Shown here in pieces: positions 800 through 61,988 of a stretch of 64,000 bases of DNA; the first letter of the stretch is position 1, and each line of letters starts with the position of its first letter. The stretch lies in NCBI GenBank assembly GCA_913031595.1, contig CAJWCP010000001.1, positions 4,782 through 68,781 of the forward strand, given 5' to 3'. This DNA comes from an uncultured Flavobacteriales bacterium (GTDB lineage: Bacteria; Bacteroidota; Bacteroidia; Flavobacteriales; BACL11). The position numbers and the translations under genes are program-made. The notes under the pieces are model-generated. The model saw nothing but the letters and a program-made list of their open reading frames with translations. It made no database searches and was not told where the DNA came from.

Positions 800-1072
800 C
801 TAAGGGCGATATTTCTCTTCCCATTTTAATCCCTGCCAAGCACATTCAGCACATCTATATCTTTTAAGATTAAATATTCTTAATGTAAGATGGTAAAATA
901 TTTTGTCTTGTTTTTTCCTTTGTATTCTTTTCAATGCAAATGAGCAATCAGGGCAACAATTGTTACAGTTTTCACATACTTGCTTCTTTCCAAAGCCTAA
1001 AAAGCGTAGTATAAATAATACTATAACATATCCTATAATAATTATAAATAATTTTAAAAAAGGGTCTGTCAT
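800..1072 (-). CDS. Hypothetical membrane-anchored Cys-rich mini-protein
   Basis: 90-aa ORF lying 64 nt downstream of porT on the same strand. One N-terminal hydrophobic helix (FIIIIGYVIVLFILRFLGF) is followed by CENCNNCCPDC ... CAEC. No family recognised with certainty. Confidence 0.45.
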   Translation of the reverse strand: MTDPFLKLFIIIIGYVIVLFILRFLGFGKKQVCENCNNCCPDCSFALKRIQRKKQDKIFYHLTLRIFNLKRYRCAECAWQGLKWEEKYRP

Positions 1073-18885: not shown

Positions 18886-19527
18886 TTAATCACGAATTTT
18901 TTTACTTATCATTAAACCATCTCTAATAGGTAAGAGTAAAGTTTCTATTCTCTCATCTTTTAGAACCTTTTTATTATATTCATTTAATGCTTGAGTTTCT
19001 TTATCTTGAACCTCTTCTAGTACTTTTCCACTCCATAGAACATTATCTGCAATTATATATCCGTTAATTTTTATTTTATCAATAATTAAATCAAAATATT
19101 TACAATAGTTTTCTTTATCAGCGTCAATAAAAGCAAGTTCGAAACACTGGTTAAGTTCACTTATAATATCTAATGCATTTCCAATATATTGAGTAATATT
19201 ATTTTTATACATAGATTTATCAAAATATTTCTTTGCAATTATTGCATATTCCTCATTAATATCTAATGTGTGTAACATACCACCTTTTTTGAGTCCTTCT
19301 GCTAAACATAATGCAGAGTATCCAGTATATGTTCCAATTTCTAGAATATTCTGTGGGGATATCATGTTACTTATCATTGAAAGAAACCTACCTTGGGTAA
19401 ATCCTGATAGCATTCTAGGGTTCATTACATTCGCCCATGTTTCTCTATTTAAATCAGATAATAGCTGGTGCTCTTTATTACTGTGATTGATTGCGTATTG
19501 ACTAATTTTTTCAGGAGTAAAGTCCAT
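18886..19527 (-). CDS. Class I SAM-dependent O-methyltransferase (caffeoyl-CoA OMT-like)
   Basis: 213 aa with ILEIGTYTGYSALCLA and FIDADKENY motifs. Confidence 0.8.
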   Translation of the reverse strand: MDFTPEKISQYAINHSNKEHQLLSDLNRETWANVMNPRMLSGFTQGRFLSMISNMISPQNILEIGTYTGYSALCLAEGLKKGGMLHTLDINEEYAIIAKKYFDKSMYKNNITQYIGNALDIISELNQCFELAFIDADKENYCKYFDLIIDKIKINGYIIADNVLWSGKVLEEVQDKETQALNEYNKKVLKDERIETLLLPIRDGLMISKKIRD

Positions 19528-19540
19528 ATTTTTGATATAA

Positions 19541-19568
19541 AAAAAGCCACACCTAAGTGTGGCTTTTT
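19541..19568 (-). terminator. Rho-independent terminator hairpin (symmetric, A-tract/T-tract flanked)
   Basis: aaaaaGCCACAC-ctaa-GTGTGGCttttt, lying 15 nt downstream of the stop of the 19584-20018 gene. Confidence 0.7.
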
Positions 19569-19583
19569 AAATTTTAAATTTAA

Positions 19584-20018
19584 TTATTCATCTGAAGAAG
19601 TGTTTTCTTCATTTGCTTCTGTAGTAGTGTTTTTAGAGCAAGAAGATTTTTTATTTTTTGATTTACAACATGTTTTTTTCTTACTACTGTAGTTGTTACT
19701 TTTATTGTAATTAAATTCTCCTTTATTTGATTTGCTGCAAGATGATTTCTTTTTTGAACTACAGCATTTCTTTTTTGTTTTAGAGCATTTTGTTGCTGCA
19801 CTTTCCCCATCTGCTTTACAACAGTTTTTTGTGTTTTTATCACATATTTTTCCAGTATTTACGCATACAGTTTTTCCTTCTTCATTTGTTGTAAACGGGC
19901 ACTCCTTCTCTATTTTTTCAACTTTCCCTTTGCTGCATCCACATGTTCCACATGCATTTACATTTGATATGCCTAATACTAAAAATAAACTGAATAGGCT
20001 AATTAATATTTTTTTCAT
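19584..20018 (-). CDS. Secreted (possibly lipidated) Cys/Lys/Ser-rich low-complexity protein
   Basis: 144 aa with signal peptide MKKILISLFSLFLVLGISNVNA followed by CGTCGC. It has 15 Cys including three CC doublets. It carries its own -7 box and its own terminator. Confidence 0.6.
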   Translation of the reverse strand: MKKILISLFSLFLVLGISNVNACGTCGCSKGKVEKIEKECPFTTNEEGKTVCVNTGKICDKNTKNCCKADGESAATKCSKTKKKCCSSKKKSSCSKSNKGEFNYNKSNNYSSKKKTCCKSKNKKSSCSKNTTTEANEENTSSDE

Positions 20019-20044
20019 TTTGTTTTGTTTTTACGATTAGATAG

Positions 20045-20052
20045 CAAATATA
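20045..20052 (-). promoter_or_regulatory. -7 promoter element TATATTTG for the Cys/Lys-rich gene
   Basis: Reverse complement of caaatata, lying 26 nt upstream of the ATG at 20018. Confidence 0.4.
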
Positions 20053-42766: not shown

Positions 42767-43813
42767 TTATTTCGATTTTAATATAATTTTCTTTTCTATT
42801 TTACCATTACTATAAATATAAAACAAAGGAGTGTTGTAAAGCTTTTCTTTACATTCTCTACCAAGAACATCTATTATTTTCACTACTTCTGTATTTTCTA
42901 TTATGTTCTCTATTGTCAAAGCATTATCAAGAGTAAAGTTAATGTTTGCAATACTATCACAACCACTTACAGTAATTAACGAACTATCTACATAGTCTCC
43001 AGATGCAGTTAAAGAAATATTATTCCATGTAATAGTAGGGTCTGATGATACAAGAGTGTCATAACTTATTGTATTAATTGTCGCCATATTCCAATAAGGA
43101 TTCATTGGATCATTCGCCATTACTAGTGTTTCAGTAGTTCCTAGCGTTATTCCGAATGTATCATCTAGTAGTGTTACCGTATGAGTTATAAAGTCATAGA
43201 TATATGATTGTTGACATACACCACAGCTATCCATTATTGAGCTTCCATCTACTATACCGTTACAATCTATTGTACAGTTTGCATTCCAGTAAGGATTCAT
43301 TGGATGATCTGGCATTACTAACATTTCAGTAGCTCCCAGTGTTATACCTGCTGTATCATTTAGTAATGTTACAGCGTGCGTTACAAAGTCATAGATATAT
43401 GCTTGTTGGCAATCTCCACAGTCATCAGTTAATGATGTTCCATTTGCGATACCGTTACAATCTAGATTTCCTGTTTGAATAGATGCAATAATTACTCCTT
43501 TCATTCCCATTCCAACGTGAGGTTGACAAACATAATGATATGTTTGATTATTAGTAGTTATCAAATAGTCTGTTGCTCCAAATCCAAAATTAAATCCTCC
43601 GTTTGAAGTGCTACCATTACTTACATAAGTTGACTGATCTACTTCAACAGCATTATGAGTTGCTCCTAATACAAAATGTATTGTGTCTCCTACATAACAG
43701 TTTACTGTGTCTGGAGAAAAAGTCATGCCTACTGTATTTACAGTATAAGAGTTTTGAGAATATGTTATATTGAATAACAATATGCTTAATAATAGTAGTA
43801 TATGTTTCTTCAT
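42767..43813 (-). CDS. Secreted cupredoxin (plastocyanin/azurin-like type-1 copper) protein with two Cys-rich repeats and a short C-terminal tag
   Basis: 348 aa with a signal peptide. The type-1 Cu ligand pattern is H53 (GATHNAVEV) and C96-x2-H99-x4-M104 (YHYVCQPHVGMGMKG). Two ~65-aa repeats follow, then the C-terminus ...IIDVLGRE...PLFYIYSNGKIEKKIILKSK. Confidence 0.7.
   Translation of the reverse strand: MKKHILLLLSILLFNITYSQNSYTVNTVGMTFSPDTVNCYVGDTIHFVLGATHNAVEVDQSTYVSNGSTSNGGFNFGFGATDYLITTNNQTYHYVCQPHVGMGMKGVIIASIQTGNLDCNGIANGTSLTDDCGDCQQAYIYDFVTHAVTLLNDTAGITLGATEMLVMPDHPMNPYWNANCTIDCNGIVDGSSIMDSCGVCQQSYIYDFITHTVTLLDDTFGITLGTTETLVMANDPMNPYWNMATINTISYDTLVSSDPTITWNNISLTASGDYVDSSLITVSGCDSIANINFTLDNALTIENIIENTEVVKIIDVLGRECKEKLYNTPLFYIYSNGKIEKKIILKSK
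43079..43465 (-). repeat. Tandem in-frame duplication (2 x ~195 nt) encoding a ~65-aa Cys-containing module
   Basis: Amino acids 117-181 are LDCNGIANGTSLTDDCGDCQQAYIYDFVTHAVTLLNDTAGITLGATEMLVMPDHPMNPYWNANCT. Amino acids 182-245 are IDCNGIVDGSSIMDSCGVCQQSYIYDFITHTVTLLDDTFGITLGTTETLVMANDPMNPYWNMAT. Confidence 0.85.
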
Positions 43814-50935: not shown

Positions 50936-52564
50936 TTATTCTAGTATTATTTTTTTCTCTACTCTTCCATCTGTATAGATATAGAATAGAGGTGTATTTT
51001 TTTTAGGAGAGGTTTCTTTTCCAAGTACATTGGTAATTCTATACTCTTTACTATTAGAGTTGATTTCGTTTATATTTGTTGAGTTAATCATGGTTAAATC
51101 TAAGGTAATTATACTATCACAACCTTCTGAATTTGTTGTTGTAAAAGTATAAATCCCACTTTGTGTATATTCTATTCCATTCCAAGTATAATTATTGTAT
51201 CCAGTATCTGTAACAAGTGATGAACTTGAGTGTTTAATCCATAAGTCTAATATTATTGTGCTGTCACAACCACATTGATTAGGAAATGTATTTATATAAG
51301 TTCCAGATGTTGTGTAATTAGTTCCATTCCAAGAGTAAGAATCACATGTGTCTAATGTTATTGCTATAGTTGGTGTTGGATAACAGCAACTTCCATCATC
51401 AACATTAGCTGTAGAATCATAATTACATGCTAATAAGTCCATGCAACCTACGTTTTGAGATGCAAAGAACCAGTCAAATTTTTGTGCTCTATATAAGTTT
51501 CCTCCATCATCATATTCTAATTGAAAAACAATCTGGCCATTTGTATCTACTTCTGTTACAATGGATCCTATGTTTAACCATTGTAGATTGCCAAAGTCAA
51601 TTAGTGTATTACCATTTGGTAATCTCTGTACTCCGCTAATTGATGGAGTATATAAGGAATCAGGATGAACAAATTCCCATACTTTTTCTGCAGTCATTAA
51701 ATTAGTGTCAAGTTCATATTCTACAGCTCTTGAAAGTTTTACTCCAATATATGTATCACTATGATTACCATTATCATATAATAAATATCTATTATCACCT
51801 AAGCTTCTAATAGAGTGTTGATGTGTGAAAGGGTAGTCATTTATAAAGGTAAATTCATTTTGAGAACCTCCCCATCTCCAGATAACTTCTCCTGTTGTTC
51901 TATGTATTTTTGTGATTTCATCTAAACCTCTTGAAGAAATAATAAAGTGTCCATCAAAATCAATGTCTATTGCATTTGCATGAATAAAATTTAATTGCGA
52001 TCCTGTCCAAGGAGACAGATAAGTATTGTCTGTTACATGAAAATGATCCCAACTTTTCCATTCAAAGAGCAGGTTATGATTAGAATCTAATTCTTGAATA
52101 ATTAACCCTTCAACTATAGCATTGGGGTCTCCACCAGCAACTACTGTATCCATAGCATAAGGTTGTTCATCATATGCGATAAGCACATAATTTCCATTTG
52201 GTAATGCTAAAAAATCATGATTATCTGCAATATATCCATTTTGGCAGTAAACAGAATCAATTTCATTTTGTAAAGAATCCATAATAAACCATCCTTTACT
52301 AGATCTGTCAAAATAGGATAATTTATTATTATAATTAACCTTAAAGTCCCATCCTTTCATTCCCCAATTTTGAGAAAATATTTCTGTTCCTGTTGAGTCT
52401 ATTATTTTAACAGGTCTTGGAGCAGTTCCTCCTCTTTGAAAGAAAAGATTTGCATCCCAAGCTTGATTTGTATTAACCGTTATTGTATAGTTAGGTTGTT
52501 GAGGTTGTGTAAAAGAAAGTGTTGGGATAATTATAAGAAATAGTAATATTTTTTTTATCATCAT
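50936..52564 (-). CDS. Secreted arylsulfotransferase (ASST)-like beta-propeller protein with Cys modules and short C-terminal tag
   Basis: 542 aa with a signal peptide. ASST-family-like motifs are NHDFLALPNGN, FIHANAIDIDFDGHFIISSRGLDEITKI...GEVIWRWGG and HQHSIRSLGDNRYLLYDNGN. It then has GCMDLLACNYDSTANVDDGSCCY, two WNG...SG.Y...GCDS modules and the C-terminus TNVLGKE...PLFYIYTDGRVEKKIILE. Confidence 0.6.
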   Translation of the reverse strand: MMIKKILLFLIIIPTLSFTQPQQPNYTITVNTNQAWDANLFFQRGGTAPRPVKIIDSTGTEIFSQNWGMKGWDFKVNYNNKLSYFDRSSKGWFIMDSLQNEIDSVYCQNGYIADNHDFLALPNGNYVLIAYDEQPYAMDTVVAGGDPNAIVEGLIIQELDSNHNLLFEWKSWDHFHVTDNTYLSPWTGSQLNFIHANAIDIDFDGHFIISSRGLDEITKIHRTTGEVIWRWGGSQNEFTFINDYPFTHQHSIRSLGDNRYLLYDNGNHSDTYIGVKLSRAVEYELDTNLMTAEKVWEFVHPDSLYTPSISGVQRLPNGNTLIDFGNLQWLNIGSIVTEVDTNGQIVFQLEYDDGGNLYRAQKFDWFFASQNVGCMDLLACNYDSTANVDDGSCCYPTPTIAITLDTCDSYSWNGTNYTTSGTYINTFPNQCGCDSTIILDLWIKHSSSSLVTDTGYNNYTWNGIEYTQSGIYTFTTTNSEGCDSIITLDLTMINSTNINEINSNSKEYRITNVLGKETSPKKNTPLFYIYTDGRVEKKIILE

Positions 52565-52572
52565 TTTAAAAT

Positions 52573-54621
52573 TTAAGATTGGTCTTTTTTTCTTACCATA
52601 GTTAATATAGTTGCTAACATCACTGTTTCATTCTCGTCGTCATATACATCTACTAAGAATTTTACAATACCTTTTGCTATATCTTCTTCATCTTTTTTTT
52701 CTTGAGTGATTTTTTCTTTTGCTGTAAACCGTACACCAATTGTCATTCCAGGATAAACAGGTTTTGTAAATCTACACTCATCAATACCATAATTTAAAAG
52801 TACAGGTCCTTTTTCAGGATCTACAAAAAGACCTGCAGCTTTACTCATTATAAAATAACCATGCGCTACTCTTTCTGTAAAGATTGTTCCATCTAACGAA
52901 TTTTCATCCATATGGGCATAGAATTTGTCTCCGCTTAGATCTGCAAAGTTTTCAATATCATCTAGTGTAACAGTATGTTTTTTTGTGATAACTGTATCAC
53001 CAATCTGTATTTCTTCAAAGTGTTTGCGGAAAACATGAGGTCCTTCTGTATTTTGCTCTCCACCTACTTGGTATTGTTTGGTGAGCGCTGTAATTGTTGT
53101 TGGGTGTCCTTGTATGGCTGTTCTTTGTAGATAATGTTTAATGCCTCTTATTCCTCCCATCTCTTCTCCACCACCTGCTCTTCCAGGACCTCCATGTGTT
53201 AGTAGAGGCATAGGAGAGCCATGACCAGTACTTTCTTTAGCACATGCCTCATTAAGAACTAATATTCTACCATGCATAGAAGCAGCTCCTATTACAAATT
53301 CTTCTGCAATTTTCATATCATTTGTTATAATAGAGCATACTAATGACCCTTTTCCCATTTTCGCAAGTTTGATAGCCTCATTAATATCTTTATAAGGTAA
53401 TATAGTAGATATAGGTCCAAAAGCTTCTATGTTATGACAATCTGTATTTTTAAAAGGATAATTGTTTAGAAATAGAATTGGTGAGATAAAGGCTCCTTTA
53501 TCTTTATCAGCTCCTAATACTTCAAAATTATCTAGATCTCCAAACACTATATCTTGAGATTTTGCTAACTGGTGAACTTTTTCTGTTACCTCTTTCTTTT
53601 GTTCTTTTCCTGCAAGGCTTCCCATTCTTACTCCTTCAATAGTAGGATCTCCAATAACAGTTTTTGAGAGTCTTTTTCCAAGTGCTATTTGCACATCTTC
53701 TACAAGTTTCTCAGGTACAATAATTCTTCTAACAGCAGTACATTTTTGACCCGCTTTTACTGTCATCTCTTTTTGCACTTCTTTTATAAATAATTCAAAT
53801 TCTGGTGTTCCTGGAACAGCATCTTCCCCAAGAACAGAGCAGTTTAGTGAATCTGCCTCCATATTAAATGGAACAGCCTCTTCTATTAATCTAGGGTGTG
53901 CTTTTAACATTTTTCCAGTATCTGCACTTCCTGTAAAAGTGACTACATCTTCAGATGTTACACTATCTAATATACCTCTTGCACTTCCGCATATAAGTTG
54001 TAAACTGCCTTCCGGTATAATTTTAGATTCTATTATTTCACGAACCATGTATTCTGTAAGATATGATGTTAGTGTTGCTGGTTTTACAATTGCTGGCATT
54101 CCTGCCATTAAGTTTACTGCTATTTTTTCTAGCATACCCCATATTGGGAAATTGAATGCATTAATATGAATAGCCACTCCTTCTTTTGGAACCATTATAT
54201 GGTGTCCAATAAATGTTCCGTTTTTAGAAAGAGGAACAGCATTTTCTTCTACGTGGTATGGTAGGTCTGGGAATTGTCTTCTAAGAGATGCATTTGTAAA
54301 TAAATTGCCTATTCCTCCTTCAATATCTATCCAGCTATCAATCTTTGTTGCTCCTGTTTGAAAACTTATAGGATAAAATTTATTTTTTATTGAGTGTAAA
54401 TGAAGAGCAAGTTTCTTTAACATTAATCCTCTTTCTTGGAACGTCATTTTTCTAAGTGCGGGACCACCTACTTTCCTTGCATAATTCATCATTTCTGAGA
54501 AATCTAAACCTTTTGATGTGGCTGTTCCTATTTGCTCTCCTGTTATAGCATTGAAAAGGGGAGTCCCTTCTCCATCTCCTTTAATCCAATTTCCTAAAGC
54601 GTAGTTTTCGTAATTTCTCAT
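52573..54621 (-). CDS. paaZ: Bifunctional PaaZ (oxepin-CoA hydrolase / 3-oxo-5,6-dehydrosuberyl-CoA semialdehyde dehydrogenase)
   Basis: 682 aa with an N-terminal aldehyde dehydrogenase domain (catalytic Cys region GQKCTAV) and a C-terminal MaoC-like hydratase domain. The length matches E. coli PaaZ. Confidence 0.85.
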   Translation of the reverse strand: MRNYENYALGNWIKGDGEGTPLFNAITGEQIGTATSKGLDFSEMMNYARKVGGPALRKMTFQERGLMLKKLALHLHSIKNKFYPISFQTGATKIDSWIDIEGGIGNLFTNASLRRQFPDLPYHVEENAVPLSKNGTFIGHHIMVPKEGVAIHINAFNFPIWGMLEKIAVNLMAGMPAIVKPATLTSYLTEYMVREIIESKIIPEGSLQLICGSARGILDSVTSEDVVTFTGSADTGKMLKAHPRLIEEAVPFNMEADSLNCSVLGEDAVPGTPEFELFIKEVQKEMTVKAGQKCTAVRRIIVPEKLVEDVQIALGKRLSKTVIGDPTIEGVRMGSLAGKEQKKEVTEKVHQLAKSQDIVFGDLDNFEVLGADKDKGAFISPILFLNNYPFKNTDCHNIEAFGPISTILPYKDINEAIKLAKMGKGSLVCSIITNDMKIAEEFVIGAASMHGRILVLNEACAKESTGHGSPMPLLTHGGPGRAGGGEEMGGIRGIKHYLQRTAIQGHPTTITALTKQYQVGGEQNTEGPHVFRKHFEEIQIGDTVITKKHTVTLDDIENFADLSGDKFYAHMDENSLDGTIFTERVAHGYFIMSKAAGLFVDPEKGPVLLNYGIDECRFTKPVYPGMTIGVRFTAKEKITQEKKDEEDIAKGIVKFLVDVYDDENETVMLATILTMVRKKDQS

Positions 54622-54644
54622 TTGTATAACTCTTCTTTGTTAAT

Positions 54645-55205
54645 TTATTGACAAGTTAAATTGTTTTGGTTTGATTTAATATACACAGGGTTTTTCCATC
54701 CAAAAACATTATACATAATTGAATCATTAAAATAAACATCCGTAACAAAAGATATTTGATTATCTGATATAATTGTGAATTTATTTAACACTTTATTCCA
54801 TAGAACTGGTTCTTGCAAAGATATGTATTCAATCCATAGGTCATTTTCCGTGTTTTTTACAATTTCATAATGCATTCCATCTATATCAGTAGTCCCTCCT
54901 TCATTAAACCATAAGCAGAACCAGTCGTTAGAATTGTTAGACATATTTGTTCTTCCTAACATGAAATTATTACCTGAGTAGAATCCTATTTGTTCCCAAT
55001 TTAAATATCCATAACCATCATCATTACATTGTGCTACTTCAGAATCCCAATTATCTTGATATAACCAAACCGAACCATCTTGTTGTTCTAAGAAGGTTGT
55101 TGCTCCATTATTATTTGTCGGTGTATTTTCTTCTTTTTCACAAGAGATAAACAATAAAGGTAAATAAACTATAGCTAGTAGCTTCGTTATTGTGTTTTTT
55201 TCCAT
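54645..55205 (-). CDS. Hypothetical lipoprotein embedded in the paa operon
   Basis: 186 aa with lipobox LFISC. Its start overlaps the paaY 3' end by 19 nt. No family recognised. Confidence 0.5.
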   Translation of the reverse strand: MEKNTITKLLAIVYLPLLFISCEKEENTPTNNNGATTFLEQQDGSVWLYQDNWDSEVAQCNDDGYGYLNWEQIGFYSGNNFMLGRTNMSNNSNDWFCLWFNEGGTTDIDGMHYEIVKNTENDLWIEYISLQEPVLWNKVLNKFTIISDNQISFVTDVYFNDSIMYNVFGWKNPVYIKSNQNNLTCQ

Positions 55206-55780
55206 GTGTCAAAAGTTATTTTTTGTTTTGCCTTTCTATTTTTTTCAATTTCAGATAAAGGAGAACATTCTCTCATTAATTCTTTGCATTCTTTTGGAAG
55301 CTGTTGATACAATTCTGTTCCTTTAGTTTTCCATTTAATCATCTCATCTGACACATCTCCTTTTATTTGTGCAGGATTTCCTACAACAATTTTCCTATTA
55401 GGTATTTGCATTTCACCCTTTACAAAACATAGAGCCCCAATAATACATTCACTACCAACATTTACATCATCCATAATTACAGCATTCATGCCTATCATAC
55501 TATTTTTTCCAATATTAGCTCCATGGATAATTGCACCATGGCCAATATGAGCATTCTCTTCTAGTATAACATCTTTACCTGGAAAGATATGAATAATACA
55601 ATTATCTTGAACATTACACCCGTCTTTAATTATAATTTGTCCCCAATCTCCTCTAAGTGATGCTCCAGGTCCAATATATACATTCTTACCAATAATTACA
55701 TTACCAATGATAGTAGCTTCTTTATGTACAAAAGAACTAGAATCTATTACAGGCTTATATCCATTAAATTCGTAAATCAT
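55187..55780 (-). CDS. paaY: PaaY-like hexapeptide-repeat protein (gamma-carbonic-anhydrase family)
   Basis: 197 aa with a left-handed beta-helix and His ligands (HIGHGAIIHG). Located in the paa operon. Confidence 0.75.
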   Translation of the reverse strand: MIYEFNGYKPVIDSSSFVHKEATIIGNVIIGKNVYIGPGASLRGDWGQIIIKDGCNVQDNCIIHIFPGKDVILEENAHIGHGAIIHGANIGKNSMIGMNAVIMDDVNVGSECIIGALCFVKGEMQIPNRKIVVGNPAQIKGDVSDEMIKWKTKGTELYQQLPKECKELMRECSPLSEIEKNRKAKQKITFDTWKKTQ

Positions 55781-56979
55781 ATTTTTTCAATTATTGTAGC
55801 ATATCCTTGTCCTACACCAATACACATGGTAACTAAGGCATATTTTTTATTTTGTTTTTTTAGTTCTATAGCAGCAGTTTGTAAGATTCTTGTTCCGCTT
55901 ACTCCAAGAGGATGCCCTAATGCTATAGAACCTCCGTTTGGATTAATTCTTGGATCATCATCTTTTAATCCCCATTCTCTAATACAGGCTAAGGCTTGTG
56001 CAGAGAAAGCTTCATTTAATTCAATGATATCCATCTCCTCCATATTTAAACCTGCCTTTTCAAGAGCTTTATTAGAAGCCATAACAGGTCCAATACCCAT
56101 TATTCTCGGTTCAACACCTATAACAGCTGAACTTACAATTCTTGCAATAGGAGAGAGGTTGTTTTCTTTGACTCCTTTGTCAGAAGCTAAAAGCATTGCA
56201 GCTGCTCCATCATTTAATCCTGATGAGTTACCTGCAGTTACTGACCCTCCTTCTTTTTTAAATGCTGTTCTTAATTTACCTAATACCTCTAGTGATGTGT
56301 TAGGCTTTATAAATTCATCTTTATCAAATATGATAGGTTCTTTTTTTCTTTGAGATATTTCTACTGGAATGATTTCTTCAGCTAATCTTCCTGAATTTTG
56401 AGCGTTTGTTGCTTTCATCTGAGAGTTGTAAGCAAATAAATCTTGATCTTCACGAGAGATATTATATTTCTCTACTAGATTTTCTGCTGTATTTCCCATA
56501 GGATCTACTCCATATAATTCTTTAAGTCTAGGATTTATAAAACGCCAGCCGAAAGAGGAGTCATACATTTTTGCATTTCTTCCAAATGGTCGTAAAACTT
56601 TTGATATAACCCAAGGTCCTCTAGTCATACTTTCTACACCTCCAGCTATGAATAGATTTCCGTCTTCTGCACAGATAGCTCTGTGAGCATGTATAACTGA
56701 AGACATTCCTGATGAACATAGACGATTTATTGTTTCTCCAGGCACAGTAAATGGTAATCCTGCTAGTAATAGAGACATACGTGCTATATTACGATTATCT
56801 TCTCCAGCTTGATTTGCACAACCTAATATAACATCATCTATTTTGTTTGGATCAATTCCTGTTCTTTTTATTAATTCTTTGATTGGAATAGCACCAAGAT
56901 CGTCTGTGCGAACATCTTTTAGAGTTCCTCCAAAATTCCCTATAGGGGTTCTTATCGCATCTATTATATATGTACTCAT
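55777..56979 (-). CDS. paaJ: 3-oxoadipyl-CoA / 3-oxo-5,6-dehydrosuberyl-CoA thiolase
   Basis: 400 aa thiolase with active-site Cys region NRLCSSGMSS and C-terminal motifs NPNGGSIALGHPLG and CIGVGQG. Confidence 0.85.
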   Translation of the reverse strand: MSTYIIDAIRTPIGNFGGTLKDVRTDDLGAIPIKELIKRTGIDPNKIDDVILGCANQAGEDNRNIARMSLLLAGLPFTVPGETINRLCSSGMSSVIHAHRAICAEDGNLFIAGGVESMTRGPWVISKVLRPFGRNAKMYDSSFGWRFINPRLKELYGVDPMGNTAENLVEKYNISREDQDLFAYNSQMKATNAQNSGRLAEEIIPVEISQRKKEPIIFDKDEFIKPNTSLEVLGKLRTAFKKEGGSVTAGNSSGLNDGAAAMLLASDKGVKENNLSPIARIVSSAVIGVEPRIMGIGPVMASNKALEKAGLNMEEMDIIELNEAFSAQALACIREWGLKDDDPRINPNGGSIALGHPLGVSGTRILQTAAIELKKQNKKYALVTMCIGVGQGYATIIEKI

Positions 56980-56983
56980 TTTC

Positions 56984-57091
56984 TTACCACATTTCGGTTT
57001 TTATCTTCTTATTATTATTGCATTTTTTACTAGTAGTGCAAGCACCTAATAAGAATACTAAACATACTAATAGTATCATTGTTTTTTTCAT
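56984..57091 (-). CDS. Putative 35-aa mini-lipoprotein (below the ORF-track cutoff)
   Basis: MKKTMILLVCLVFLLGACTTSKKCNNNKKIKTEMW with lipobox LLGAC. It fills the paaI-paaJ gap, leaving 5-nt and 4-nt spacers. Confidence 0.3.
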   Translation of the reverse strand: MKKTMILLVCLVFLLGACTTSKKCNNNKKIKTEMW

Positions 57092-57096
57092 TTTTT

Positions 57097-57507
57097 TTAA
57101 AACCATTTTTTTTTAGTTCGATATACTTCACCTTTAAAGTGAGCAATCTCTATTTTATTTTGATTCGTTATCTTAATTTGATAGGTCGCATTTTTATCAT
57201 CTTTTCTTATTTCTTGTGTTTCAGCAGTTAAAGTGTCTCCTATCATTACTTTTTTTGTGTGAGAAATAGAAGTGTTAATAGATAAAGATTGTCTTCCGTC
57301 TGAATTTGCAGCAAATGCTAATGCACTATCTGCTAATGAGTATGCAATTCCTCCATGTGCAATTCTAAATCCATTTGTCATATCTTCTCTTATAGTCATT
57401 GTTAGTTTACAATATCCCTTAGAAACATTCACAACTTTAATACCTAACCAATTACTAAATGCATCACCATTTATCATTTTATTTACAACTTTCTCAGCTA
57501 GTTCCAT
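57097..57507 (-). CDS. paaI: Hydroxyphenylacetyl-CoA thioesterase PaaI
   Basis: 136 aa hotdog thioesterase with HGGIAYSLADSA motif. Confidence 0.8.
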   Translation of the reverse strand: MELAEKVVNKMINGDAFSNWLGIKVVNVSKGYCKLTMTIREDMTNGFRIAHGGIAYSLADSALAFAANSDGRQSLSINTSISHTKKVMIGDTLTAETQEIRKDDKNATYQIKITNQNKIEIAHFKGEVYRTKKKWF

Positions 57508-58661
57508 TAATAGAATGTTTTGTTTTCTTTTATCATTCTTCTTAAGATAGGGGAAGGTCTATATCTTTCTTCTCCATATTCTGCTTGTAACTCTTCTAAT
57601 TGCGTTAATACATTTTTAATTCCTATTTCATCAGCCCAAACCAATAACCCTTTTGGATAGTTTACTCCTTTAGTCATAGCAAGGTCAATGTCTTCTTTTG
57701 TTGCAATCTTTAAGAAAAATGCATCAGCAGCTTCGTTAATTAGCATGCATAATATTCTCCATAATATTATTTTTCCTAAATCTCTATCTTCATTTGCTAA
57801 TGGACGTTCTTCTGTTGTGTAATCATAATATCCTTTTCCAGATTTTCTTCCAAGATATCCTGCTTCCATCATTCTTTTTTGAGTAAATGAAGGTTTATAT
57901 CTGGAGTCAAAATAGAAAGTTGTAAACACTGTTTCGGTCACCATATAATTCACATCATTTCCTATATAATCCATTAGTTCGAAAGGTCCCATACGAAACC
58001 CTCCAATTTCACGCATGGCCCAGTCAATAGTCGCAAAATCAGCAATTCCCTCTTCATAGATTCTTAGAGCTTCTCCATAGAATGGTCTTGCTACACGATT
58101 TACAATAAAGCCTGGAGTATCTTTAGCAATGACTGTGATTTTATTCCATGAGTCAATTATTGATCTAGCAGTATTTAATGTTTCTGTAGTTGTTTGTACA
58201 GCAGGAATGATTTCTACTAAAGGCATTAATGGTGCTGGATTAAAGAAATGAATTCCAATAACTCTTCCTGATTTTTTGCAAGCAGCTGCAATAGACGCGA
58301 TTGATAGAGAGGAAGTGTTAGATGCAATAATACAATCCTTGTCAATAATTCTTTCGATTTTAGAAAATAAATCTTGTTTTATATTTAGATCTTCAATAAT
58401 TGCTTCAATAACTAATACGCTTTCTTGTATATCCTCTAGATCTGTTGTAAAATTAATCCTTGAATTAATATTTTCTTTCTCTTGTTGAGAGATTCTTTCT
58501 TTTTCTACTAGTCTATTTAAGATTTTTTCAATCTTATGCTTAGAATTTTTAATAGCTTCATTAGAGGAATCGTAAAGACATACTTCATGTCCATATGTGG
58601 CAGCAATTTGTGCGATTCCTGTTCCCATTGTCCCTGAACCAACAATACTTATTTTTTTCAT
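57507..58661 (-). CDS. paaH: 3-hydroxyadipyl-CoA (3-hydroxyacyl-CoA) dehydrogenase
   Basis: 384 aa with NAD-binding IVGSGTMGTGIA and a 3HCDH C-terminal domain. Confidence 0.8.
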   Translation of the reverse strand: MKKISIVGSGTMGTGIAQIAATYGHEVCLYDSSNEAIKNSKHKIEKILNRLVEKERISQQEKENINSRINFTTDLEDIQESVLVIEAIIEDLNIKQDLFSKIERIIDKDCIIASNTSSLSIASIAAACKKSGRVIGIHFFNPAPLMPLVEIIPAVQTTTETLNTARSIIDSWNKITVIAKDTPGFIVNRVARPFYGEALRIYEEGIADFATIDWAMREIGGFRMGPFELMDYIGNDVNYMVTETVFTTFYFDSRYKPSFTQKRMMEAGYLGRKSGKGYYDYTTEERPLANEDRDLGKIILWRILCMLINEAADAFFLKIATKEDIDLAMTKGVNYPKGLLVWADEIGIKNVLTQLEELQAEYGEERYRPSPILRRMIKENKTFY

Positions 58662-59431
58662 TATTTTCCTTTAAATTCTGGCTTTCTTTTTTCTAAAAAA
58701 GCTTCTACACCTTCTTGATAATCAACAGTATTTCCTGCTATAGTCTGATAATCTCTTTCCATATTTAACTGTTCTCCTAGATTATTGCTATAAGAGGAAT
58801 TTAATAATCTTTTAGTAAGACCTAAACCTTTGGTTGCCATCTCAGCTAATTTTTTAGCTAGTTTTAAACTCTCTTGTTCAAATGATTCGTTTGAGAACAC
58901 TTTATAAATCATGCCTATTTTTTCAGCCTCCATTGCAGATATTGGTTCACCTGTCATCATGAGTCCTGTTGCTTTTTGCATGCCAATTAATCTTGGTAAG
59001 AAGAACGTTGCTCCACTATCTGGGATTAATCCAATTTTACTAAATGCTTGTATAAATGATGCATTTTCACATGCTATTACAATATCACAGCATAGAGCAA
59101 GGCTTGCACCAGCTCCTGCAGCAACTCCATTTACAGCTGCTATTACTGGTTTTTCTATACTTCTTATTTGTTTAATAATAGGATTGTAATGTTCTTCCAC
59201 AATTTCTGTTAAGGAAGGTCCTTCTTTTTGTGTGGCTTCTATTAAATCTTGACCTGCACAGAATGCTTTTCCAGTTGCTGTTATTAGTATAGATCTAATC
59301 TCTTCATCATTTTTACATTGACTTAAAACCTTTTGAAGATTTAATGCCATTTCTCTTACAAAAGAGTGATATTTTTCCGGACGATTTAAGTGTATTATAC
59401 CTACTCCTTCTGATATTTTAAATTGTATCAT
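58661..59431 (-). CDS. paaG: Crotonase-family 1,2-epoxyphenylacetyl-CoA isomerase
   Basis: 256 aa with FCAGQDL and NGVAAGAGASLAL crotonase motifs. It is positioned after paaABCD. Confidence 0.75.
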   Translation of the reverse strand: MIQFKISEGVGIIHLNRPEKYHSFVREMALNLQKVLSQCKNDEEIRSILITATGKAFCAGQDLIEATQKEGPSLTEIVEEHYNPIIKQIRSIEKPVIAAVNGVAAGAGASLALCCDIVIACENASFIQAFSKIGLIPDSGATFFLPRLIGMQKATGLMMTGEPISAMEAEKIGMIYKVFSNESFEQESLKLAKKLAEMATKGLGLTKRLLNSSYSNNLGEQLNMERDYQTIAGNTVDYQEGVEAFLEKRKPEFKGK

Positions 59432-59473
59432 TTTTTTCAGATTATTAGAGTGCTAAAATACGAAAAATAAATC

Positions 59474-59926
59474 TTAGATACATTTAAAAGCCTCGAAGGG
59501 CTCTAAACAATCTGAGCACTTGTAAAAGGCTTTACAAGCGGTTGCTCCAAACTCACTTATTAGTGTAGTGTTTTTAGAATTACATTGTGGACATATTACT
59601 ATTTTAGAAGGAGGTGCTATTCCGTAATTGTTAAGTTTTTCTTTTGTTTCTTTACTCATCCAATCTGTAGTCCAGGCAGGAGCGTAAACTAGCTTAATTT
59701 TAAAGTTTCTGAATCCATTTTCTTTAAGACATTTTTTGATATCATTAGTAAATGCTGTTACCGCAGGGCATCCAGAGTACGTGGGAGTTATTGATATAGT
59801 ATATAAATTGTCTTTCAGATTCACATCTCTTACTACACCTAATTCAACTATTGATATTACTGGAATTTCTGGATCAGGTATTGTATTAAGTAATTGCCAG
59901 ATATGTTTTATATTACCATTTTGCAT
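59474..59926 (-). CDS. paaD: 1,2-phenylacetyl-CoA epoxidase subunit PaaD
   Basis: The start is placed at MQNGNIKHIWQLLNTIPDPEIPVISI. It has a SUF/MIP18-like domain and a C-terminal Cys cluster (CPQC...CKAFYKCSDC). Confidence 0.8.
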   Translation of the reverse strand: MQNGNIKHIWQLLNTIPDPEIPVISIVELGVVRDVNLKDNLYTISITPTYSGCPAVTAFTNDIKKCLKENGFRNFKIKLVYAPAWTTDWMSKETKEKLNNYGIAPPSKIVICPQCNSKNTTLISEFGATACKAFYKCSDCLEPFEAFKCI

Positions 59927-60659
59927 TTGGGTATGCTCTTTGTAGAAATTGCATTTCAGCAAGTAGAAAGCCAAGACATTCCGTATGGATTCCTTTTTTT
60001 CCGCCACTTGCCATATATCCATCTTCTGGTCTATTTAATTTGGCAGTTTTTAAAGTACTATCTATCATTTCATTCCATTTAGGTCTGAGTTTACTTACAT
60101 CGATTGCAATATTTTTTTTCATTAGTTCAGTGTCAATTGTATCCATTTCAAATAGCTCACCAGTATATTGCCATAACTCTTCTAATGCATCTTGTACCTT
60201 TTTATTGCTTTCATCCGTACCGTCTCCAAGACGGATTAACCAGTTTTTAGAATGCCTTAAATGATATTTCACTTCTTTTATAGATTTAGCAGCTAATGCT
60301 GATATTCTTTCATCACTACTATTAGCAAGCTCAGTATAAAATAAGAAAATAAAAGAGTCATATAGAAAGTTTCTTACTATAGTCTTGCCAAAATTGCCAT
60401 TTGTTTGTTCTACTAGTTGGTAGTTGAAGAACTCTCGTTCATTTCTAGTAAAGGCTAGTTCATCAGCTGATTTCTCTCCATTTATTTGGGCCGCATATTC
60501 ATAAAACCCATTTGCCTGGCCAAATAAGTCTAGAGATATATTAGAAAGAGCAATATCTTCTTCTAATGTAGGTCCGTTAGAACACCATTCAGCCATTCTT
60601 TGACCTAATATTAGTGCACTATCAGCTATTCTTATGGTATAGGTAAATAAATTCGACAT
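59913..60659 (-). CDS. paaC: 1,2-phenylacetyl-CoA epoxidase subunit PaaC
   Basis: 248 aa ferritin-like helical protein lying between paaB and paaD. Confidence 0.8.
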   Translation of the reverse strand: MSNLFTYTIRIADSALILGQRMAEWCSNGPTLEEDIALSNISLDLFGQANGFYEYAAQINGEKSADELAFTRNEREFFNYQLVEQTNGNFGKTIVRNFLYDSFIFLFYTELANSSDERISALAAKSIKEVKYHLRHSKNWLIRLGDGTDESNKKVQDALEELWQYTGELFEMDTIDTELMKKNIAIDVSKLRPKWNEMIDSTLKTAKLNRPEDGYMASGGKKGIHTECLGFLLAEMQFLQRAYPNAKW

Positions 60660-60943
60660 TAGATATGTTTTGCACCATCTGGCATGTTATAAAAGGTAGG
60701 GTGTCTATATATTTTATCATTTGAGGGGTCAAAGAAAGCCTCACTATCTTCACTTTCAGAAGAGACAATATCTTTTGCTTTAACAACCCATATGCATGAG
60801 CCTTCATTTCTTCTAGTGTATAGATCTCTGGCATTTTCTAAGGCCATTACTTTGTCAGTTGCATGTACATTTCCTACATGTTTATGTGCTAATCCATTTT
60901 TACTTTGAATAAACACTTCCCAGACTATTGTGTTTTCTCCCAT
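60659..60943 (-). CDS. paaB: 1,2-phenylacetyl-CoA epoxidase subunit PaaB
   Basis: 94 aa with WEVF...HVGNVHA...ALENARDLYTRR, typical of PaaB. Confidence 0.9.
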   Translation of the reverse strand: MGENTIVWEVFIQSKNGLAHKHVGNVHATDKVMALENARDLYTRRNEGSCIWVVKAKDIVSSESEDSEAFFDPSNDKIYRHPTFYNMPDGAKHI

Positions 60944-60947
60944 AATA

Positions 60948-61874
60948 TTATGATTTTAATATTTTTTCTTGTTTTTGAGCGTATGCTTGTGATGCATTAC
61001 GAACCCATTTTCCATTATCATGAGCTCTTTTATGATGCGCTAATCTTTGTTTATTGCATGGGCCATGACCATTTACAACATTCCAAAATTCTTCCCAATC
61101 CATTTCCCCAAAATCATAATGTCCTCTTTTTTCATTCCATTTAAGTTCAGGGTCAGGAATTGTTAGCCCTATTACTTCAGCTTGTGGTACTGTTTTATCA
61201 ATAAAACTTTGTCGTAACTCATCATTGGTTTGTCTTTTTATTTTCCATTTCATTGCATTCCCAGTTCTTGGAGAATCTGAGTCTTGAGGTCCAAACATCA
61301 TAATAGAAGGCCACCAGAATCTATTTAATGCATCTTGAGCCATTTCTTTTTGTTCAGGAGTTCCTTTAGCCATTTCTGCCATGATTTCATATCCTTGCCT
61401 TTGATGAAAGCTTTCTTCTTTACATATTTTTATCATACCTCTAGAGTATGGCCCGTAAGATGTTCTTTGTAAGGATACTTGATTTACAATAGCTGCCCCA
61501 TCAACAAGCCATCCTATTGCTCCCATATCAGCCCAGCTTAGTGCAGGGTAATTAAAGATAGATGAGTATTTAGCATTCCCATCATGTAATTGTTGAATCA
61601 ATTCATCTCTAGTTACTCCAAGTGTTTCACAAGCAGAGTATAAGTATAAACCATGTCCTGCTTCATCTTGCACTTTAGCTAGTAGTATCATTTTTGCTCT
61701 TAAAGAGGGAGCTCTTGTTATCCAGTTTCCTTCTGGCTGCATCCCTATAATTTCAGAATGTGCATGTTGAGAGATTTGTCTGACAAGGTGTCTTCTATAA
61801 CCTTCAGGCATCCAATCTTTTGGTTCAATTTTTTTTTCTGCGTCTATCTTTTCTTGGAATATTTTATCTGACAT
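60948..61874 (-). CDS. paaA: 1,2-phenylacetyl-CoA epoxidase catalytic subunit PaaA
   Basis: 308 aa di-iron ferritin-like oxygenase with EExGH-type motifs ([17 protein letters not shown]). Confidence 0.9.
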
Positions 61875-61891
61875 GTTATATTTTATACTTG

Positions 61892-61971
61892 CAAATTTAT
61901 GAATTTATGTCATCTAAATAATGATCTTTAGTGTAATATAATGACCTTTATTTGTTAAAATGGTATTTTTG
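61892..61971. promoter_or_regulatory. Divergent paaA / paaE promoter region with two direct 13-nt repeats
   Basis: The paaA -7 box TAAATTTG (reverse complement of 61892-61899) and the paaE -7 box TATTTTTG (61964-61971) each lie 17 nt from their ATG. Repeats ATAATGATCTTTA (61918-61930) and ATAATGACCTTTA (61938-61950) lie between them. Confidence 0.45.
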
Positions 61972-61988
61972 CAAAAAAAATATTATAA

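Follow-up and report, generated by a model that had tools for sequence, protein, structure and literature searches.

The metallothioneins, among them the vertebrate MT1/2 type and the bacterial SmtA/BmtA and MymT, are small cytosolic proteins dominated by Cys, Lys and Ser, in which Lys and Ser sit next to Cys. They contain virtually no His, Met or Trp, carry CC, CxC and CxxC motifs, conserve their Cys residues while the rest of the sequence drifts, and are unstructured without metal. An exported precedent is Csp1 of methanotrophs, a Cys-rich (13-18 Cys) thiolate metal store in the Gram-negative envelope. Basic runs punctuated by Cys or CC, combined with a flexible Cys number, are found in protamine P1, in keratin-associated proteins and in OmcA, a small Cys-rich envelope lipoprotein of chlamydiae, and these proteins offer a model for disulfide-locked polyanion binding or for an envelope network. 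A fourth point of comparison is Asr of E. coli, a disordered, Lys-rich periplasmic protein of some 100 aa that is exported by Sec and has a monocistronic gene.

The protein described here shares with the metallothioneins all of the features listed above except one, as it carries a Sec-type signal rather than being cytosolic. It further differs from them in Cys content (10-12%, compared with 15-33%) and in a typical Cys spacing of 7-8 residues, in being about twice as long and a strong polycation (Lys 21-23%), in having a conserved aromatic/Asn motif and an acidic tail, and in matching none of their HMMs. Csp1 is a folded, Cys-lined four-helix bundle exported by the Tat pathway, whereas the present protein has a Sec-type signal and disorder is predicted for it; Pfam, PDB and Foldseek searches revealed no resemblance to Csp1 in sequence or fold. 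The likeness to protamine P1, keratin-associated proteins and OmcA is compositional only, with no homology: here the basic residue is Lys and not Arg, the protein is bacterial and predicted to be periplasmic, and most family members lack a lipobox. Asr, also not homologous, has no Cys, is rich in His, Ala and Gln, and is induced by acid.

A polycation studded with cysteine

The window, by which we mean the whole 64,000-nucleotide stretch of DNA that was analysed, comes from an uncultured Flavobacteriales bacterium. The gene of interest runs from an ATG start to a TAA stop on the minus strand:

19584..20018, minus strand: CDS for an exported Cys/Lys/Ser-rich low-complexity protein of 144 aa (coordinates take in the stop codon)

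Removal of the signal peptide would leave a mature protein of 122 aa (about 13 kDa) with the composition K28, S18, C15, T13, N13 and E11 and with no His, Met or Trp. Cys makes up 12.3% of mature residues and Lys about 21-23%; the calculated pI is 9.2 and the net charge about +13. The 15 Cys lie at positions 23, 26, 28, 40, 52, 59, 66, 67, 78, 85, 86, 94, 117, 118 and 127, and form three CC doublets. As a share of the full-length protein Cys reaches 10.4%, compared with a mean of 1.35% and a maximum of 7.8% among the 64 other ORFs of the window. The description of this protein as a Cys- and Ser-rich polycation with an acidic tail at its end (Lys about 21-23%, Cys about 10-12%) is strongly supported. 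A first-pass annotation, made from the DNA letters, had reported a secreted 15-Cys, Lys/Ser-rich low-complexity protein at 19584-20018 with two copies of a module and the acidic tail EANEENTSSDE. All of its sequence statements were reproduced, including the tail and both module copies, which lie at residues 82-99 and 113-131.

Promoter box, leader and terminator

The gene is flanked by the following elements and by a downstream gene on the same strand:

20045..20052, minus strand: sigma-A type -7 box TATATTTG (consensus TAnnTTTG), 26 nt before the ATG
20019..20044, minus strand: short A-rich leader with no Shine-Dalgarno sequence and with A at -1 to -3
19539..19568, minus strand: intrinsic terminator consisting of A5, a 7-bp GC-rich stem GCCACAC/GTGTGGC (19546-19563) with a 4-nt loop, and U7
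18886..19527, minus strand: class I O-methyltransferase (OMT) gene (Methyltransf_3), located downstream, with its ATG 11 nt after the U-tract

The -7 box had been placed 26 nt upstream at first pass, and this proved exact. TATATTTG is found 21-29 nt before the start in 9/13 related loci. A TAnnTTTG box occurs at this distance in 10/13 and in an eleventh locus at 42 nt, the variant boxes being those of L022 (TATCTTTG, 26 nt) and L024 (TAAGTTTG, 42 nt). It is this conserved position that gives the box its significance, because TAnnTTTG itself is not enriched in the window (90 found, 105 expected). No clear TTG-type -33 element was apparent by eye in the upstream sequences of the window and related loci. 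An inferred transcription start site would leave a 5′UTR of about 21 nt. In Flavobacterium the -7 box lies at -12 to -5 and the median 5′UTR is 24 nt, which the position of the box here fits (PMC9723704). The last 20 nt of the leader are 70% A and AAA precedes the ATG in 9/13 loci; in Flavobacterium, an A at -3 favours initiation (PMC6847099).

On the minus strand the hairpin reads GCCACAC-TTAG-GTGTGGC (19546-19563); the loop given earlier as "ctaa" is the plus-strand reading. The terminator A-tract begins 15 nt past the stop codon, and the stem measures 7 GC-rich bp, or 12 bp counting the A/U tracts. Its predicted folding energy is -18 kcal/mol (z = -5.1), with 0/200 shuffled sequences as stable, and a custom scan found only two perfect GC-rich hairpins followed by a T-run in the 64 kb. 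The hairpin escaped a simple terminator scanner, presumably on account of the longer stem that the A/U tracts allow. A hairpin with a T-run lies past the stop codon in 13/13 loci, with a changed stem sequence in L007, L021, L022, L023 and L024. By these features, the hairpin qualifies as a predicted Rho-independent terminator, in line with the strong hairpin terminator of the first-pass annotation.

The same annotation had considered the gene a self-contained transcription unit. The conserved box and the terminator bear out one half of this claim; the other half is undercut by the OMT gene, for which no consensus -7 box was found within 500 nt. Because its ATG lies only 11 nt after the U-tract and it has no consensus box of its own within that distance, OMT is probably expressed by read-through, and the terminator would probably act as a leaky attenuator inside a longer unit. 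The gap between terminator and OMT start codon is tight in related loci too (11-24 nt). An Rfam scan of the whole window found no RNA family, riboswitch or sRNA near the gene.

Homologues, gene order and selection

A single-sequence search returned 40 homologues, and profile searches returned 71 clusters at 50% identity and 382 at 90%. Without exception these come from marine metagenomes, surface-ocean metagenomes among them, or from Flavobacteriales MAGs; a scan of a genome collection yielded only 3 loci, all in Flavobacteriales MAGs. In nearly all members examined the gene lies between psd and the OMT gene, and the order RsfS-FtsH-DUF2007-CdsA-Psd-[this gene]-OMT-ProDH was strict in the 7 longer loci examined. 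Even the remote member P0098 has psd directly upstream. The neighbours in 8 loci encode FtsH, DUF2007, CdsA, Psd, OMT, ProDH, AlaDH, TsaE and a PglZ response regulator. Common descent probably accounts for this synteny more than function does. Since the genes upstream of distant OMT homologues (identity at most 52%) are unrelated (M16 peptidase-like and MFS-like by eye), these comparisons strongly support confinement of the family to one clade of AT-rich marine Flavobacteriales.

The comparative data also bear on whether there is a gene here at all. Further reading frames of the A-rich stretch are open and the product matches no known family, as would be expected of a chance ORF in A-rich low-complexity DNA or in a psd-methyltransferase spacer. 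This explanation is refuted by the comparisons, and we consider it practically untenable. Hundreds of homologues have in common a signal peptide, a framework of Cys residues and the core motif, and the promoter box and terminator bracket exactly the ORF at 19584-20018. The indels between strains (57, 21, 3 and 3 nt) keep the frame, each being a multiple of 3, and psd, cdsA and OMT have none. dN/dS is 0.14-0.24 for the gene and 0.03-0.14 for its flanking genes. Conservation of the frame, on which the first-pass annotation had staked its claim, was seen in close and distant relatives alike, with the same flanking genes. Sequence evolution at the locus therefore strongly supports a real gene under purifying selection, and the retention of a single-copy positional orthologue in streamlined genomes implies a real contribution to fitness.

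An undescribed protein family

No family had been recognised at first reading, and the profile searches agree. With the window protein and five relatives (P0188, P0158, P0178, P0122 and P0003) Pfam returned 0 families at E ≤ 10, and with the remote member P0106 only insignificant, unrelated matches; NCBIfam gave noise only (E ≥ 0.9), and a PDB sequence profile search gave 0 matches at E ≤ 1. A search of the full-text literature found nothing on the family or on an exported bacterial metallothionein-like protein of such a type. Taken together, the searches strongly support the protein as representing an undescribed family, which currently has no Pfam or NCBIfam model.

Several assignments were considered and rejected. 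Metallothionein membership fails on HMMs, as no metallothionein or Csp model matched even at E ≤ 10. A classical metallothionein is also at odds with a Cys content of about 10-12% (about 15-33% in that class), with export and with a conserved aromatic motif; the paucity of His (0.1%) and Trp (0%) is metallothionein-like, yet the F..[FY]....Y motif is retained at 0.72-0.78. For a Csp copper storage protein there is neither a Pfam (DUF326-type) match nor a predicted four-helix bundle. Five members are named Skp family chaperone by JGI, wrongly, and the others are annotated "hypothetical"; an Skp/OmpH chaperone was rejected on 0 Pfam families at E ≤ 10 for P0188, P0158 and P0178 and on the lack of predicted helices.

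The cationic, Cys-rich and Ser/Thr-rich composition, the small size and the fast evolution of sequence and indels would suit a secreted cationic antimicrobial peptide, a bacteriocin or a RiPP precursor of the lanthipeptide or ranthipeptide type. The N-terminus is a classical Sec signal and not a leader peptide, however, and no maturase (LanB/C/M or radical SAM/SPASM) or other modification enzyme, immunity gene or dedicated exporter was found within about 6 kb on either side in 8 loci. Bacteriocins are typically patchy in distribution, whereas this gene is a single-copy positional orthologue amid housekeeping genes throughout the clade, and the protein has no T9SS C-terminal domain that would offer a route across the outer membrane. 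We rejected a RiPP precursor, the SCIFF type included, and regard this whole disfavoured group of explanations as very improbable.

Export signal and mature N-terminus

Two features mark the N-terminus of the protein:

19953..20018, minus strand: signal peptide, residues 1-22 (MKK, a 15-residue hydrophobic core, then VNA)
19935..19952, minus strand: CGTCGC motif, residues 23-28 (family form C-x-T-C-G-C-Q)

The signal peptide, MKKILISLFSLFLVLGISNVNA, followed directly by CGTCGC, is the best conserved block of the family, and AlphaFold2 predicts a helix at residues 3-16. It is a conserved, predicted Sec signal; a signal peptide had already been proposed from the window copy. In relatives the signal ends in A|Q in 46/72 and in A|C in 26/72. 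A|Q is the "Q-rule" signature of signal peptidase I substrates in Bacteroidetes (PMC5837995). Because most members carry this signature, the periplasm is strongly supported as the predicted default location.

The window copy ends its signal in V-N-A and has Cys at +1, in contrast to the Gln of the majority. Among the 26 members with Cys at this position, 24 have C.(T/S)CGC followed by Q, 23 of them in the form C.TCGCQ; the window protein departs from the latter by having S after CGC. Its N-V-N-A|C sequence fails a PROSITE PS51257-like lipobox pattern, with Asn at -2 and -4. The doubt already expressed about VNAC as a lipobox is thus fair. Of the Cys-type relatives 20/26 also fail the rule (6/26 pass), a rule against which Bacteroidota lipoboxes are looser. 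Lipid anchoring of the A|C subtype, the window copy included, would be possible but is unsupported. A comparison of Cys parity showed no pattern (odd Cys numbers in 11/26 Cys-type and 23/46 Gln-type members) and supports neither lipidation nor an all-disulfide fold.

Cys framework, modules and predicted disorder

Downstream of the CGTCGC motif the protein contains five recognisable segments:

19818..19901, minus strand: the only partly ordered module, residues 40-67 (ECPFT..GK.VC..TGKIC....CC)
19722..19775, minus strand: K/S/C repeat module 1, residues 82-99 (KKKCCSSKKKSSCSKSNK)
19689..19721, minus strand: conserved non-Cys core motif, residues 100-110 (GEFNYNKSNNY; family form G-x-F-N-[FY]-N-K-S-N-N-Y)
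19626..19682, minus strand: K/S/C repeat module 2, residues 113-131 (KKKTCCKSKNKKSSCSKNT), with conserved SSC.K and CC columns
19587..19619, minus strand: acidic C-terminal tail, residues 134-144 (EANEENTSSDE)

Between relatives 35-80% identical, Cys is retained at 0.82, Lys at 0.59 and Ser at 0.42; all remaining residues are below 0.47 except the Phe and Tyr of the core motif (0.72-0.78). Retention is thus highest for Cys, which points to the thiols as what selection acts upon in this protein. Across the family K, S and C dominate, Cys averaging 10.2% (range 3.4-15.4%), with 0.1% His, 0.3% Met and 0% Trp. The neighbours of Cys are mostly S, C and K, and CC, CxC, CxxC and Cx3C motifs occur. 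Spacing between Cys residues peaks at 1, 4 and 7-8 residues, the last being commonest beyond CC. The mature Cys count ranges from 8 to 17 and is odd in 34/72 members, within both N-terminal subtypes. A fixed disulfide fold is argued against, since the number and parity of Cys appear to vary freely and repeat modules come and go.

The K/S/C modules are present in four copies in P0016, three in P0023 and two in P0039, and form long arrays in P0074 and P0101. In the window copy, TRF detected only trivial A/T-rich 7-mers at the DNA level; the modules are protein-level repeats and not recent DNA tandem duplications in this copy. The core motif is found in 59/72 members, with F102, K106, N108 and Y110 at least 90% conserved; it also occurs in two proteins that are not Cys-rich, P0075 and P0081. 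An acidic tail, rich in E, T, P and A, is common to most relatives.

AlphaFold2 gave a mean pLDDT of 52.5 with 40 sequences and 50.8 with 139, so that the deeper alignment brought no rise in confidence. Beyond the signal peptide the deeper run yielded no helices, and the first run only two turns of 4 residues. Only residues 40-67 reached a pLDDT of about 80 in the first run (65-68 in the second), with three short strands; Cys52, Cys59 and the CC doublet of this module are columns at least 90% conserved. An in-frame deletion removes residues about 36-58 (19 aa net, 57 nt) in the near-identical strain L011 (96% identity in OMT), and the module is therefore dispensable. The best Foldseek match of the model in PDB was a zinc-finger micro-protein at E = 3.6, meaningless at such model confidence. 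These models strongly support a protein predicted to be almost entirely disordered. Together with the lack of Foldseek and PDB matches, the variable number of modules and the deletion of the semi-ordered module in a strain, the disorder suggests a function driven by composition; the evidence would fit composition-driven thiol chemistry without choosing among metal, redox and polyanion roles, the three conjectures of the first-pass annotation. Whatever the function, the family is a clean example of selection for composition and not for fold, as Cys positions are retained, module number is free and in-frame indels turn over at strain level.

The arrangement of the Cys residues brings in the main rival to a metal-binding role. 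The protein might be a disulfide-crosslinked polycationic envelope protein or polyanion binder, whose Lys runs would attach to an anionic polymer of the envelope, such as peptidoglycan, LPS core, capsule, periplasmic glucans or an acidic or sulfated polysaccharide taken up from outside. Disulfides within and between molecules, made by the regularly spaced Cys and CC doublets, would lock a network, and the N/aromatic motif and acidic tail would mediate docking or head-to-tail self-association. Here Cys or CC punctuate the Lys runs every 7-8 residues, and Cys/CC-punctuated basic runs are the pattern of mammalian protamine P1. Intermolecular crosslinking would tolerate free variation in the number and parity of Cys, expandable modules would suit a spacer or bulk material, and a consensus promoter box, A-rich leader and strong terminator would suit an abundant structural protein. 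The compartment is an oxidising one. The basic body, acidic tail and GxFNFNKSNNY motif are also better explained in this way than by a metal sponge. Against these points, the partner polymer is hypothetical, most members have no membrane anchor or peptidoglycan-linking feature, and with no T9SS C-terminal domain surface exposure is unlikely. AlphaFold2 gave no hint of self-assembly, though none would be expected, and we know of no precedent for a crosslinked polycationic envelope protein in Bacteroidota. We consider this explanation, which takes protamine, keratin-associated proteins and OmcA as its analogues, conceivable but doubtful.

A candidate thiolate metal buffer

Our leading proposal, still a tentative one, is that the protein may act as a periplasmic thiolate-based buffer for soft metals, metallothionein-like in its working but outside any metallothionein family. 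It would act through bulk thiol chemistry with no fixed fold, about 10 conserved Cys serving as a backbone and variable extra Cys being supplied by expandable K/S/C modules. The thiols would have to be at least partly reduced, and would wrap Cu(I), Zn, Cd and possibly Co or Hg in thiolate coordination, while neighbouring Lys residues would lower the pKa of the thiols and balance the charge of the cluster, as they do in metallothioneins. The outcome would be a constitutive periplasmic metal buffer or sink, providing scavenging or protection in trace-metal-poor, sunlit seawater.

In favour of this proposal we count the predicted export and disorder, the high retention of Cys despite its variable number, and the K/S/C-dominated, His/Met/Trp-poor composition, which resembles that of metallothioneins. 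Against it we count a Cys density about one third of that of classical metallothioneins, with Cys residues typically 7-8 apart and so thinly placed for metal-thiolate clusters. Aerobes normally keep their periplasm oxidising, and the Cu and Zn binders known from that compartment rely mostly on Met or His, neither of which the mature protein contains. Cations would be repelled by the net charge of about +13, and a pure metal-sponge model gives the conserved GxFN[FY]NKSNNY motif no role. In 8 loci the neighbours out to about 6 kb are housekeeping genes, with no metal transporter, metal-sensing regulator or thiol-redox gene among them. The nearest metal-related gene in the window, encoding a secreted cupredoxin-family protein, lies 23 kb off, too far to link.

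The same thiols could instead serve a periplasmic redox buffer or sacrificial antioxidant, scavenging H2O2, HOCl and photochemical oxidants in sunlit surface water; alternatively, a disordered polycationic holdase comparable to E. coli Asr could shield envelope proteins under stress. Disorder and polycationic character, the conservation of Cys above all other residues with a flexible Cys number, and the occurrence of the family in surface-ocean metagenomes are consistent with such roles. So is the setting of the remote member P0106, which adjoins an OsmC-family gene and an RprXY-like two-component system, although this is one weakly related case (E = 3e-4). No DsbD/CcdA-type or thioredoxin-like reductase partner was found in any neighbourhood, a stoichiometric scavenger that is not recycled would be costly for a streamlined genome, and Asr itself is without Cys. 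We judge these roles unlikely. A reading of the P0106 two-component system as a heavy-metal CusRS/CopRS system was rejected, since those matches lie far below cutoff, and it offers no metal link.

To return to metal buffering, if the thiolate-metal reading is true, no earlier Cys-based metal buffer of this kind would combine export with disorder, and this one would occur in one of the most abundant heterotrophic bacterial groups of the surface ocean. The gene would then be a concrete candidate source for some of the strong organic ligands of Cu, Zn and Cd, an ill-defined pool on which the availability of trace metals in seawater depends. A more far-reaching form of this idea, which we hold to be rather improbable, is that the family constitutes a new class of metal-handling proteins in bacteria, "periplasmic thioneins" that would be Sec-exported, disordered and polycationic. 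Through their expandable K/S/C modules, abundant streamlined marine Flavobacteriales would take up or buffer Cu, Zn, Cd or Co at picomolar levels within the periplasm. Cell lysis or release of such proteins would add to seawater's pool of strong thiol-type metal-binding ligands. With Lys at about every fourth residue, they would have escaped trypsin-based metaproteomics.

The Cys-rich gene and its product

An exported protein rich in Cys, Lys and Ser is encoded on the minus strand, with the following features:

19584-20018, minus strand: ORF of the Cys-rich gene, 144 aa
20045-20052, minus strand: -7 box TATATTTG, 26 nt before the ATG of the Cys-rich gene
19546-19563, minus strand: terminator stem-loop GCCACAC-TTAG-GTGTGGC, 3′ of the Cys-rich gene

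The ORF described in the first-pass annotation, its signal peptide with the adjoining CGTCGC, and its 15 Cys with three CC doublets were all found in the sequence, and the two modules and the acidic tail assigned to the product were both located. The signal peptide, MKKILISLFSLFLVLGISNVNA, is of textbook type and is followed by CGTCGC. The mature protein of 122 residues contains 15 Cys (three CC doublets), 28 Lys, 18 Ser, 13 Thr, 13 Asn and 11 Glu, and the window copy has no His, Met or Trp; the calculated pI is 9.2 and the net charge about +13. Cys makes up 10.4% of the protein, versus a mean of 1.35% and a maximum of 7.8% in the window's other 64 ORFs. Lys occurs at roughly every fourth residue, so trypsin would cut the protein mostly into peptides of fewer than 7 aa, and standard metaproteomics based on trypsin probably misses the family.

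Conservation and selective constraint

A single-sequence search returned 40 homologues (E = 2e-30 to 1e-3); every one came from a marine metagenome or a MAG, and no Pfam domain was present in any. When 1.84 billion cluster representatives were searched exhaustively with a profile, 71 clusters at 50% identity were found, and a profile search of a 90%-identity collection gave 382; a species-representative genome collection yielded three matches, all Flavobacteriales MAGs. Tara Oceans contigs carry the identical protein. Members are named "hypothetical protein [Flavobacteriales bacterium]" or, on five JGI entries, "Skp family chaperone". The order RsfS-FtsH-DUF2007-CdsA-Psd-[Cys-rich gene]-O-methyltransferase-ProDH was present in every longer locus examined, and P0098, a remote, GC-richer member, also lies directly behind psd. 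The gene for another remote member, P0106 (L024:4001-4375; signature CAKTCD..CC..SCDKSK..SCDKSK; E = 3e-4), is found away from psd, with an RprXY-like two-component system on one side and an OsmC-family gene on the other; it too has its own box-like promoter and a strong terminator.

Comparison with the near-identical strain L011, whose O-methyltransferase (OMT) shares 96% protein identity, revealed four indels in the Cys-rich gene (57, 21, 3 and 3 nt), all in frame, and none in psd, cdsA or OMT. In the 118-aa version of that strain (L011:2088-2444), the CPFT..GK..C module is shorter by 19 aa and a 7-aa KCSKTKK unit is missing. dN/dS was 0.20 for this pair and 0.14-0.24 in four others, with 0.03-0.14 for flanking genes. 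Loss of the reading frame in relatives, which the first-pass annotation had named as evidence against the gene, was therefore not what we found: indels are in frame and dN/dS is 0.14-0.24. A spurious ORF is excluded and, judged by sequence comparison, the ORF is a real, conserved gene.

Transcription signals and downstream genes

The -7 box reported 26 nt upstream of the gene is present and is kept at a similar position in related loci. By itself the TAnnTTTG 8-mer is not enriched in the window (90 found, 105 expected), so the weight of the box comes from the comparative data. In 10 of 13 loci the start codon is preceded by a TAnnTTTG box at a distance of 21-29 nt, as TATATTTG in nine and as TATCTTTG in locus L022. 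Locus L024 has one at 42 nt; L005 has none within 80 nt of the start first chosen, and TATATTTG occurs there 28 nt before an in-frame upstream ATG. This position fits the mapping in Flavobacterium psychrophilum, where the sigma-A box lies at -12 to -5 and the median 5′UTR is 24 nt (PMC9723704). The leader is rich in A and has A at -3, which in Flavobacterium favours initiation (PMC6847099).

The strong hairpin terminator annotated 15 nt past the stop also held up on folding (dG -18 kcal/mol, z = -5.1; 0 of 200 shuffles folded equally well). The stop codon is followed by 15 nt, an A-tract, the stem-loop and U7, and the 64 kb contain only two perfect GC-rich hairpins that run into a T-run. All 13 loci have a hairpin and T-run 3′ of the stop; the stem sequence differs in five, so that structure, and not sequence alone, is kept.

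The proposal of a self-contained unit stands as regards its own box and terminator, but not as regards what follows. Within 19527-19545 (minus strand), the OMT ATG (19527) is 11 nt past the terminator U-tract, a gap kept at 11-24 nt in related loci (L004-L009, L011, L020, L021), and within 500 nt no consensus -7 box for OMT was found except that of the Cys-rich gene. OMT and ProDH thus probably depend on transcripts that run through a leaky terminator, and the Cys-rich unit would not be fully self-contained. Most likely, a strong promoter drives high expression of the small gene, and the leaky terminator lets through a lower level of OMT/ProDH.

Family anatomy and candidate functions

In 46 of 72 members the signal peptide ends A↓Q, which by the Q-rule of Bacteroidota marks substrates of signal peptidase I (PMC5837995). 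In the other 26 it ends A↓C, and the mature part of these begins with an almost invariant C-x-T-C-G-C-Q. Only 6 of these 26 meet a PROSITE-style lipobox. The window copy (VNA↓C) fails that rule, in keeping with the earlier caveat of a poor lipobox, and lipoprotein identity is not demonstrable.

An optional module, ECPFT..GK.VC.KTGK.CD..C......CC, is the sole part given any confidence by AlphaFold2 (pLDDT about 80 with 40 sequences, 65-68 with 139), and its residues about 36-58 (19 aa net) are absent from L011. CC-K-x-K-x-K-SS-C-S-K-S-K units vary in number, and the modules are expandable. A non-Cys motif, G-x-F-N-[FY]-N-K-S-N-N-Y, is conserved in 59 of 72 members and is followed by a second block, SSC-SKK...CC-KKK; CG..CTKPCC is optional, and the proteins end in an acidic tail of E/T/P/A. 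P0075 and P0081, secreted proteins from the 50%-identity profile search that are not Cys-rich, also carry the motif, as GFNFNK(T)NNYG, duplicated in P0081 together with a His-rich domain. Its presence there suggests an independent, portable element, which may serve for docking or self-association.

In comparisons between relatives of 35-80% identity, the residue retained most is Cys (0.82), followed by the motif Phe (0.78) and Tyr (0.72), with Lys at 0.59, Ser at 0.42 and all others below 0.47. Cys is thus constrained, in about ten conserved columns. The mature Cys total ranges from 8 to 17, with odd parity in 34 of 72 members and no difference between N-terminal subtypes; a fixed, fully paired disulfide fold is consequently unlikely. 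AlphaFold2 mean pLDDT was 52.5 and 50.8 in two runs, and neither a PDB sequence search nor Foldseek gave a match. The exported product is predicted to be disordered, and looks like a chain whose function depends on many thiols within a Lys/Ser matrix.

Pooled mature composition is K 22.6%, S 12.6%, C 10.3%, E 9.5%, T 9.2% and N 7.1%, with H 0.1%, M 0.3% and W 0%. Several features favour thiolate coordination of soft metals, by which the protein would serve as a periplasmic metallothionein-like buffer or sink: Cys is flanked by Lys and Ser, His, Met and Trp are lacking, the metal-free chain is predicted to be unstructured, and the Cys number is flexible. We rank this first, tentatively: Cys density is low and spacing long, the compartment is oxidising, the charge is strongly positive, metal genes are absent nearby, and the aromatic motif is left unexplained. 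A disulfide-crosslinked polycation binding an anionic envelope polymer, like protamine or OmcA, would account for the regular Lys-run/Cys pattern, the acidic tail, the conserved docking-like motif, and the signals suggestive of abundant expression. This reading, which has no known precedent or partner, is ranked second and is doubtful. A redox-buffer or holdase role is unlikely. A bacteriocin or RiPP-precursor role is disfavoured as very improbable, given that the signal is of Sec type, that the gene is single-copy among housekeeping genes, and that maturase, immunity and exporter genes are missing. There is an appreciable, if minor, chance that the function lies beyond those listed.

Comparison with known families

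The protein is akin to known "Cys-rich thiol/metal proteins" and is metallothionein-like in its working at best, not a family member: no HMM matches, its Cys content falls short of the classical metallothionein range, and the protein is exported and has a conserved aromatic motif. Csp identity was rejected for want of a helical bundle; RiPP precursor and Skp/OmpH identity were rejected too. JGI/IMG gives P0158, P0178, P0186, P0188 and P0194 the name "Skp family chaperone for outer membrane proteins". Of these, P0158, P0178 and P0188 were scanned with Pfam and had no OmpH/Skp match at E <= 10; the name is probably a composition-driven mis-annotation. A literature search found no paper on the family, which is genuine, undescribed and clade-restricted, has an unusual composition and is clearly under selective constraint. 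The family would be of considerably greater interest if it proved to bind metal or to be strongly expressed in situ.

Other loci in the window

The second most Cys-rich ORF (800-1072, minus strand; 90 aa, 7 Cys, 7.8%) has one N-terminal transmembrane helix, then CENCNNCCPDC and later CAEC, with no Pfam match. A secreted 348-aa protein with 11 Cys (42767-43813, minus strand), 23 kb away from the Cys-rich gene, has a copper-binding domain of the plastocyanin/azurin family at its N-terminus (E = 8e-10), from which an envelope copper requirement is predicted in this organism. An arylsulfotransferase (ASST)-family secreted protein is encoded at 50936-52564 (minus strand), and by eye, from N-terminal sequences alone, an ORF run at about 54600-63000 resembles a phenylacetate or fatty-acid-type degradation cluster.
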